IMG/VR virus record: IMGVR_UViG_2925914267_000007
Location: 1-42,657 of that record
Direction: 5' to 3' (one strand)
Length of the DNA stretch: 42,657 bases
Origin: a virus
Taxonomy: Duplodnaviria; Heunggongvirae; Uroviricota; Caudoviricetes
Both the position numbers and the translations under genes were made by a program. Of this stretch, positions 29,276-31,418 are shown one piece after another. Under the pieces are notes generated by a model, which saw only the letters and a list, made by a program, of their open reading frames with translations, made no database searches and was not told the DNA's origin. Numbering within the stretch: position 1 is the stretch's first letter; every line of letters begins with the position of its first letter.

Positions 29276-29757
29276 CTCAATGAACGGTATCGAGCAGCTT
29301 TAACAGCTCAGGGAATCGGGATTCGAAGAAATGCGGCTGCGTCTCGCGCGGATTTGCGGGACTGGTGATGTTCTTGCCGAACATGCAACCTTTCGCTGTC
29401 AGCGACCAGAATTTTTTGATGTTGTTAATCGCGGTACGGCTGTATCGTTCGCGCTGCTCGACGATCCCCAGTTTCACCATCTGGTGATATGCCTGATTAG
29501 CCGTCAGGCGTATACCATACTGTTTCAGCAGTGCACTCAGTGACAGTGTCGGGCGACTTGAGCCATCGTGTGCATCAGCAGGAGCATCAATGGCATAGCG
29601 CGGTGCCAGATTCGGTAAGCCAACAGCCTCCTGGAGTTTCTGACAGGCACCAAGCACTGAAGAGTTAGACAGGTTTAACTCCCGGCGCATAAAGTCCAGC
29701 AGGATCACGCCAGCCTGAACCGCCCCGGGTTTCCTGGAGAGTGTTTTATCTGTGAAC

Positions 29758-30648
29758 TCAGGCTGCCAGATCATCGTTTCCGATGGAAGCATAATAAGCT
29801 TTTTCTGCTTCTGCCGGTGGGATATGGCCCAGCCTTTCCAGCAATCGTCGATTGTTATACCAGTCCACCCACGTGAGTGTGGCCAGCTCCACTTCTGTCC
29901 GGTTTTTCCAGCTCTTACGGTGTATTACCTCCGCTTTGTAAAGGCCATTGATGCTCTCCGCCATCGCGTTGTCATACGAGTCACCAGTACTTCCTGTTGA
30001 TGCCAGTAATCCGGCTTCCTTAAGCCGCTGTGTGTAGGCCAGCGATACATACTGAGAACCTTTATCACTGTGATGGACTGTGCCGGACGGTCGACGGGCC
30101 CATAACGCCTGCTCCAGAGCATCCAGCACGAATGTCGTTTCCATAGACGATGAGACCCGCCACCCCACGATGTATCCGGCAAACACATCAATGATGAACG
30201 CCACATAGACGAAGCCCTGCCATGTGCTGACGTAAGTAAAATCAGCCACCCACAACTGGTCAGGACGTTCTGCCACAAACTGACGGTTTACGCGGTCGCC
30301 TGCGGCAACGGCTTTCCGGCTGACGGTAGTGCGGACCTTTTTACCCCGGAGAACACCGGCAAGTCCCATAACCGCCATGAGGCGCGCCACTGTACATCTG
30401 GCTACCCTGATTCCTTCCCGTAACAACTGACGCCAGACTTTACGCACACCGTATACCTGATGATTCCCATCGTATACGCGCAGTATCTCTTTCTTCAGCC
30501 AGTCATCGCGCTGCGCACGGGCACTGCGTTTATCAGGATGATGTCGCTGTTGCTGACAGTGGTAATACGTTGACGGGGCAATATGTAGTTCACTGCATAC
30601 CGGTCCGACCCCGTACAGCTTACGCAGCTTATCCAGCAGTGGCATCAC
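29758..30648 (-). CDS. IS3-family transposase OrfB (DDE integrase domain), normally made as an OrfAB -1 frameshift fusion
   Basis: 296-aa ORF overlapping the orfA 3' end; DDE-type integrase core sequence. Confidence 0.85.
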
Positions 30649-30971
30649 TTTTTCCAGAGGCGGTCGAACTCCGCCTTCGCAAAATAAGCGGAAGCCTGGC
30701 GAAGGATATCGTTACTGCGGCGCAGTTCACGATTTTCACGTTCCAGCTCTTTCAGACGCTGACGTTCAGCGGTGGTGAGCCCGCCATCACCGCCTCCGGT
30801 ATCCCGCTCATGCTGGCGTACCCAGACACGCAGAGTCTCCGGTGTACAGCCAATCTTTGGGGCAATGGAACAAATTGCCTCCCACTGTGAGTCATATTCG
30901 CCCTGACTTTCCAGAACCATACGAATCGCCCTCTGACGGACTTCGGGGGAAAAACGAGTATTTTTAGTCAT
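30645..30971 (-). CDS. IS3-family transposase OrfA (HTH)
   Basis: 108 aa [26 protein letters not shown]...; leucine-zipper-like C-terminus. Confidence 0.85.
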
Positions 30972-31418
30972 CCTGTTTACCTCTTTCTCAGGGAGTTTAG
31001 TCTCCAGGATTCCCGGGGCGGTTCAGCCTGCATCTTGTCAGCAGCCTGTCCGGATAATTTTTCCGGTGCGCTGGTTACCATATCGAAAGTACGGATCACC
31101 TTCAGATGGAATGACGGGCTGATCCACATTGCATAGGCATACACCAGTTCTTTGCAGACATACGTCCCTTGGTTATTTCCGCCATTAATGACGCTAACTG
31201 GTTGATTTTGTTCCAGAGGCGGAATTCCACCCTCGGTGAAAAGTTGTTCAATCAATTCACAGGTTTGCTTATTGGAGAGCCAGTATTTCGGGCGGTTTTT
31301 TTGTTCTCCCCCGGCTGCCCTATGCAGATCGTTCAGGCTGTAACGACCATAAGCATCACGACGAACTTCAATACCATCAATGACCATCAGATTATTCATA
31401 CTTCGTTTCTCCTCTTAA

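Follow-up and report, generated by a model that had tools for sequence, protein, structure and literature searches.

The window, which is the whole 42,657-nt stretch of viral DNA analyzed here, holds one prophage by dusA, in which the tail genes resemble those of Mu and the early region is lambdoid. Its relatives are SfV, phage cdtI, and several induced Escherichia coli phages. The prophage modules are apparently complete (integrase, tail, head, terminase, lysis, Q, replication, and cI), and the early rightward and late genes, from roughly position 36000 down to 5600, lie nearly all on the minus strand. Genes of the neighborhood follow the order PerC - Dam - LexA-DBD - RusA - KilA-N - DUF968 - Q. 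The KilA-N gene is placed in a nin-like stretch, with replication genes on one side and antiterminator Q on the other, and Q starts 3 nt past the DUF968 stop (Table 1). Next to dusA lies an integrase gene of opposite strand, which is the layout of a dusA-targeting integrase.

Other parts of the prophage also carry features of interest. Positions 31805-32131 encode a 108-aa protein with a LexA DNA-binding domain alone (PF01726) and no S24 peptidase domain; it matches phrog_362 ("transcriptional repressor"). In this prophage module, the protein is a conserved feature upstream of RusA. A DNA invertase ORF of 154 aa (4274-4738, minus strand) matches phrog_125 over profile positions 22-159 of 254 and is possibly truncated. 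Beside it are a plus-strand tail-fibre C-terminal piece and a tail-fibre assembly gene (4729-5657), which are faced by two minus-strand ORFs (5629-7010). The region 4274-7010 looks like an invertible host-range cassette resembling the Mu G segment, and the inverted repeat at this putative cassette is weak (4974-5001 and 6986-7013, 75%). Between Q and the holin, two plus-strand ORFs of 100 and 246 aa (26854-27893) are opposed to the neighboring phage genes. Pfam and PADLOC gave no match for these two ORFs, and their PHROG matches were limited to phrog_31842 and phrog_5814, two families without an annotated function; the pair is a possible moron.

Table 1. Features of the interrupted KilA-N gene, the inserted element, and neighboring prophage genes (positions in the window).
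Feature	Position	Strand	Remarks
dusA	542-1579	-	Dus domain
Tyrosine integrase	1668-2765	+	
Antiterminator Q	27920..28276	-	Next downstream after DUF968; PF06530, E 3.4e-45
DUF968/HNH protein	28280..29275	-	Downstream neighbor; start 1-7 nt after KilA-N stop
KilA-N gene, 3' part	29277..29715	-	Residues 125-269, conserved C-terminal module; without own start codon
171-aa mechanical ORF	29277..29792	-	ATG within IS, in frame into C-terminal module
GCC target-site duplication copy	29713..29715		Gene-downstream side
IS629/IS1203-group IS3-family element, complete	29716..31025	-	1310 bp; same orientation as interrupted KilA-N gene
IRR (right terminal inverted repeat)	29716..29740	+	TGAACCGCCCCGGGTTTCCTGGAGA; 23/25 identical to IRL
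orfB frame	29758..30711	-	rve integrase core, PF00665, E 1.2e-27; NF033516, 309 bits
ALIL frameshift-stimulating pseudoknot	30574..30690	-	RF01497; Rfam 116.2 bits, full model length
orfA	30645..30971	-	108 aa; HTH_Tnp_1, PF01527, E 2.4e-12
AAAAAG slippery site	30648..30653	-	AAA AAG in orfA frame, just ahead of orfA stop
Present 140-aa ORF	30977..31399	-	125 native + 15 IS-encoded residues; identical to OKV74940.1
IRL (left terminal inverted repeat)	31001..31025	-	Upstream of orfA; minus-strand reading TGAACCGCCCCGGGAATCCTGGAGA
GCC target-site duplication copy	31026..31028		Gene-upstream side
KilA-N gene, 5' part	31029..31399	-	Whole KilA-N domain; with 31026-31028 encodes residues 1-125
RusA	31419-31808	-	

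IS3-family elements are about 1.2-1.55 kb long, have imperfect TG...CA repeats, and duplicate 3 bp of their target. The element that splits the KilA-N gene, present in the window in one copy, has this length, TG...CA termini, and imperfect 25-bp inverted repeats, and GCC stands at both of its sides; once one GCC copy is dropped, the site reads as in intact alleles. The element begins TGAACCGCCCCGGG and ends CCCGGGGCGGTTCA, with TGAACCGCCCCGGG read at both ends. The ends match at the first 14 of 14 positions, then at 23 of 25 over the first 25 nt. Bases at the edges of element and flank match (A|GCC, GCC|TG), and the boundary could be drawn 1-2 bases otherwise. This ambiguity is harmless because the same 1313-bp deletion repairs the gene wherever the boundary is drawn. 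CAGCCTG, the native target, comes close to being a palindrome (reverse complement CAGGCTG; 29706-29720 and 31021-31035), so a repeat finder extends the inverted repeat of the IS 5 bases into the flanks. This extension is probably a coincidence.

The coding content of the element is that of the IS3 family. Open from IS nt 315, the orfB frame overlaps orfA and encodes 296 aa from a GTG at 30648; it carries HTH_21 besides rve in Pfam, and its score against the NCBIfam IS3-family model exceeds the 160-bit cut-off. A predicted -1 frameshift at AAAAAG yields a 404-aa OrfAB with no internal stops, and the pseudoknot scores above the RF01497 gathering score of 50. The element has the two overlapping frames in phases 0 and -1, the slippery motif, and the stimulating RNA structure by which the family is recognized. 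The copy looks functional: neither its reading frames nor its ends are damaged, as would suit an element able to transpose.

In ISfinder practice, the isoform threshold is about 95% nucleotide identity. Over its full length, the element is 99.7% identical to plasmid and chromosome copies of the ETEC H10407 type, annotated "IS3 family transposase," and this identity extends to thousands of E. coli copies. IS629-annotated copies from phage BP-4795 and from Stx phages, including Stx2_499, are 95.8-96.2% identical, full length and ungapped. Five STEC chromosomal copies are 94.9-95.8% identical, and the RefSeq name of one of these is IS1203. A search of plasmid records for the name of the IS returned only the annotation "IS3 family transposase." On these identities, the "IS629-type" designation given in the initial annotation is correct at the level of the IS629/IS1203/IS3411 group, and its account of a 1310-bp IS3-family element with terminal inverted repeats and a GCC target duplication stands.

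When the minus-strand segments 31399..31029 and 29715..29277 are joined, they form an 810-nt gene of 269 codons and a stop. The repair removes the IS and one GCC copy, 1313 bp in all. Trial deletions of 0-6 right-flank bases were in frame only at 0, 3, and 6, and deletion of 3 alone matches the length of intact homologs. The exact in-frame 269-codon reconstruction previously claimed was reproduced. Mis-called ends or a mis-called duplication could have put this reconstruction out of frame, a case against which it had been warned; it is in frame under any drawing of the boundary. In Pfam, the repaired protein has a KilA-N domain (PF04383, residues 7-109) with 94.4 bits, above the gathering score of 23.8 bits, and its predicted fold is KilA-N/APSES-like. 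The interrupted gene is a KilA-N-domain gene, as first described.

The initial annotation also called the gene antirepressor-like, and this label was not upheld. An antirepressor would have PF03374 or full-length likeness to a characterised antirepressor, and neither was found for the repaired protein. Pfam at E<=0.01 found KilA-N only, with no ANT/KilAC domain (PF03374), and NCBIfam gave no match for the repaired protein. Over its full length, it best matches phrog_129 ("transcriptional regulator," E 2.3e-128), while anti-repressor PHROGs match weakly and in the KilA-N part only (residues 6-112; E 3.9e-8 and 8.8e-4). Close phage homologs are named KilA-N protein, transcriptional regulator, or hypothetical protein, and the name "antirepressor" in phage records is limited to distant single-domain matches. 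The gene also belongs to the nin-like region upstream of Q rather than to an immunity region. Literature searches on KilA-N with antirepressor, KilA-N with DUF968, and IS629 with antirepressor returned nothing concerning the interrupted gene, and literature searches found no experimental report on the function of KilA-N proteins of this group.

The most fitting description of the protein is a DNA-binding regulator built from two modules. Searches with residues 126-269 identified a conserved C-terminal module with the motifs YAIDAP, GSSRPT, and GKN..SP.NPRETQPH.F, and elsewhere the same module also stands behind Rha (PF09669) or Bro-N (PF02498) N-terminal domains. This is the domain swapping that Iyer, Koonin and Aravind reportedly described for these phage regulators in 2002. 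No match pointing to a function of the module came from Pfam, NCBIfam, or PADLOC, and an alignment-profile search of PDB sequences gave none below E 0.8. The AlphaFold model of the repaired protein (mean pLDDT 74.9) predicts the KilA-N domain and a helix/strand domain at residues 180-265 with confidence, and the helical linker only poorly. Compared with the viral structure library BFVD, the model gave KilA-N matches only (E down to 5.7e-12). Foldseek against PDB gave no match at E<=0.001; there was weak resemblance to the APSES domains of Mbp1 and PCG2 and weak winged-helix resemblance as well.

The insertion leaves two fragments of the KilA-N gene. The 140-aa ORF keeps the native start and ends with a TAA stop 5 nt ahead of the orfA ATG; the identical GenBank protein is titled "DNA-binding protein [Escherichia coli]." The early rightward phage transcript may still yield this 140-aa protein, which would consist of the entire KilA-N domain and a 15-residue tail. 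The 171-aa ORF that runs from the IS into the C-terminal module was called as a gene on one 4.8-Mb contig only, and an exact contig look-up returned none. Its expression is doubtful because no convincing ribosome-binding site (Shine-Dalgarno) lies ahead of its ATG. The full-length two-domain protein is abolished, and synthesis of the conserved C-terminal module has probably ceased. Positions 30977-31399 and 29277-29715 should be annotated as a single IS-disrupted KilA-N pseudogene rather than as a "DNA-binding protein" and an orphan ORF.

The place of the cut could be read as functional, with a stand-alone KilA-N protein acting without or against the C-terminal module and with transposition tied to induction. 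The cut at residues 124-125 is past the KilA-N domain and coincides with the point where Rha/Bro-N homologs begin aligning, which is the start of the shared C-terminal module; in the AlphaFold model, it falls in the low-confidence linker helix. The insertion-bearing lineage is present in more than one sample. Because the stop of the truncated ORF is so close to the orfA start, early transcription would drive transposase translation, and IS629 transposition would in this way be coupled to prophage induction. However, the stops that precede orfA always belong to the IS end and did not arise through this insertion, and IS3-family hits elsewhere in the same and neighboring genes of other strains fit random hits. 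In O103 ML775, the KilA-N gene carries an IS629-like element close to its 5' end. In O121:H19 16-9255, IS600 sits in the KilA-N gene and the Rha gene holds a second, separate element of the IS3 family. UTAK-6 has an IS in the Q gene (quuD), and AUSMDU00014361 has an IS in a replication-region HTH gene. In O157:H7 genomes, 62% of IS629 copies sit in prophages or prophage-like elements, and a sequence-specific hot spot is absent (Rump et al. 2011, PMC3271280). IS hits scattered in the module are consistent with this prophage bias without a hot spot. We consider it improbable that a truncated KilA-N regulator is expressed as a working product and that IS629 transposition is coupled to prophage induction, as the layout of the junction might suggest.

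E. coli has many defective prophages that are full of IS copies, and the window could likewise hold an old insertion in an already decaying pseudogene of a degraded prophage. Comparison with intact alleles makes this very unlikely. The repaired protein is identical to gp28 of phage phiSTEC1575-Stx2k at 269 of 269 residues, and the exact protein is present on 411 public contigs. At the DNA level, the phiSTEC1575-Stx2k gene differs by 3 synonymous third-position changes (nt 54, 78, and 231), all upstream of the insertion. Neither fragment has an amino-acid change, frameshift, or stop compared with this allele, which comes from an isolated phage. The IS reading frames are intact, and the apparent completeness of the prophage modules does not fit a degraded prophage. 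Protein identity with only synonymous DNA changes indicates that the insertion is young and that the target gene was intact beforehand, as the initial annotation had proposed. At the level of sequence, the comparison establishes a young insertion that split a gene without other defect.

E. coli genomes are rich in IS629-group copies (median 4 places in each), and several IS copies occur in related prophage modules of other strains. The element could accordingly mark a recombination joint, where homologous recombination between IS copies joined two prophage segments, or where DNA next to the IS was deleted or inverted. We regard this as highly improbable. A 3-bp duplication matches at both sides of the element, and the flanks rejoin to a gene that is protein-identical with an intact allele. 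The repaired 1388-bp stretch aligns as a single ungapped piece with 100% coverage in 2,248 complete E. coli genomes (best 99.4%), which effectively refutes a joint and provides the alignment to uninterrupted homologs that had been proposed as a check. Intact 810-nt genes occupy the same RusA - KilA-N - DUF968 - Q neighborhood in many E. coli prophages, and one of these homologs is 19 nt and 1 amino acid away from the repaired gene. The reconstruction is no chance pattern, since the repaired DNA aligns in so many genomes and the repaired protein exists exactly in public data. One-piece alignment of the repaired locus and identity to intact alleles indicate a simple insertion without later decay. 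Judged by these alignments, the event was a simple insertion and not an IS-mediated rearrangement.

The 140-aa fusion ORF is diagnostic of the insertion because it cannot exist without the IS at this site; it is present on a 4.8-Mb chromosome, presumably the source of the window. The upstream junction is also found in contig LRKM01000061.1 of GCA_001912615.1, which is 99.99% identical over 10.9 kb and reaches 490 bp into the IS. An ENA metagenome scaffold that runs into the IS carries the 140-aa ORF as well, and both records are 99.96-99.99% identical to the window. Two independent records carry the upstream junction, and it is therefore not an assembly artefact. IS copies are a classic source of assembly errors and the draft contig LRKM01000061.1 breaks within the IS, but misplacement of the IS into the KilA-N gene as a repeat is hardly credible, as the NCBI draft assembly and the ENA scaffold share both the upstream junction and the fusion ORF and a mis-assembly would not create a perfect target duplication. 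The left junction, from the IS to the C-terminal fragment, was seen only in the window and the presumed source chromosome. No IS was found at the same site in 5,426 complete E. coli genomes, and an exact search with the 39-nt left junction gave no match among one representative genome per species. Absence of the left junction from species-representative genomes suggests a strain-level insertion. It is already in public assemblies, where it is unremarked, and is an ordinary, well-known type of event. The insertion can serve as a clean marker of this E. coli lineage and prophage. Related loci have IS3-family hits at other sites (L002, 2310-4432; L008, 2263-4187; L003, 265-1961; L006, 4792-6758).

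We conclude that, with high probability, an element of the IS629 group hit codons 124-125 of a 269-codon KilA-N gene, with a 3-bp duplication, in an SfV/cdtI-like E. coli prophage by dusA. No result spoke against the insertion itself. The most plausible effects of this insertion, as far as gene layout allows, would be a missing two-domain protein and a polar effect on DUF968 and Q. Tight stop/start spacing suggests that KilA-N, DUF968, and Q are probably on one transcript and may be translationally coupled, and DUF968 is exposed to polarity because its start follows the KilA-N stop so closely. About 1.3 kb of foreign DNA would intervene upstream of DUF968 and Q, and roughly 480 nt, from the orfB stop to the DUF968 start, would probably be untranslated. 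Expression of DUF968 and Q may drop through polarity. Lower Q would weaken late-gene activation rather than alter anti-repression, which the initial annotation had suggested might be affected. The sequence analysis lent no support to the altered induction that was suggested there as well. A simple consensus scan found no terminator-like site inside the IS on the minus strand, and promoter-like sites in the IS were no commoner than in shuffled sequence in a consensus scan. Polarity could be negligible should early transcription be antiterminated. Were a polar effect on Q real, the prophage yield on induction could fall, and the window would provide a further example of IS elements taming prophages. 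The nin region of phage lambda is dispensable for lytic growth. By analogy with this region, loss of the KilA-N protein is probably tolerated.

Both the element and the gene have close counterparts in known systems. The IS629/IS1203/IS3411 group, which occurs in many copies in E. coli O157:H7 prophages and in Shigella, shares with the window element the length of 1310 bp, the TG..CA ends, and orfA/orfB, and also the -1 frameshift, the ALIL pseudoknot, the 3-bp duplication, and the prophage location. The window element differs from STEC/O157 copies of IS629/IS1203 by about 4-5% and is nearer (99.7%) to the ETEC H10407-type plasmid variant. IS3-family insertions in other strains lie in the same gene neighborhood, but their sites differ, and their IS copies are about 5% diverged from the window IS.

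The KilA-N domain of P1 KilA is 42% identical to the window protein over residues 2-105, and the modular architecture of Bro/Rha/KilA regulators is common to the window protein. In contrast to P1 KilA and P22-type Ant antirepressors, no ANT/KilAC domain was found for the window gene, and it has no immunity-region context. Proteins of the lambdoid and SfV-like phages, namely phiSTEC1575-Stx2k (gp28), mEp460, and Stx2c phages, have the same length and the same RusA/DUF968 position as the repaired gene, and the mEp460 homolog is 87% identical to the repaired protein. The genes of those phages are intact, whereas the window gene is split.
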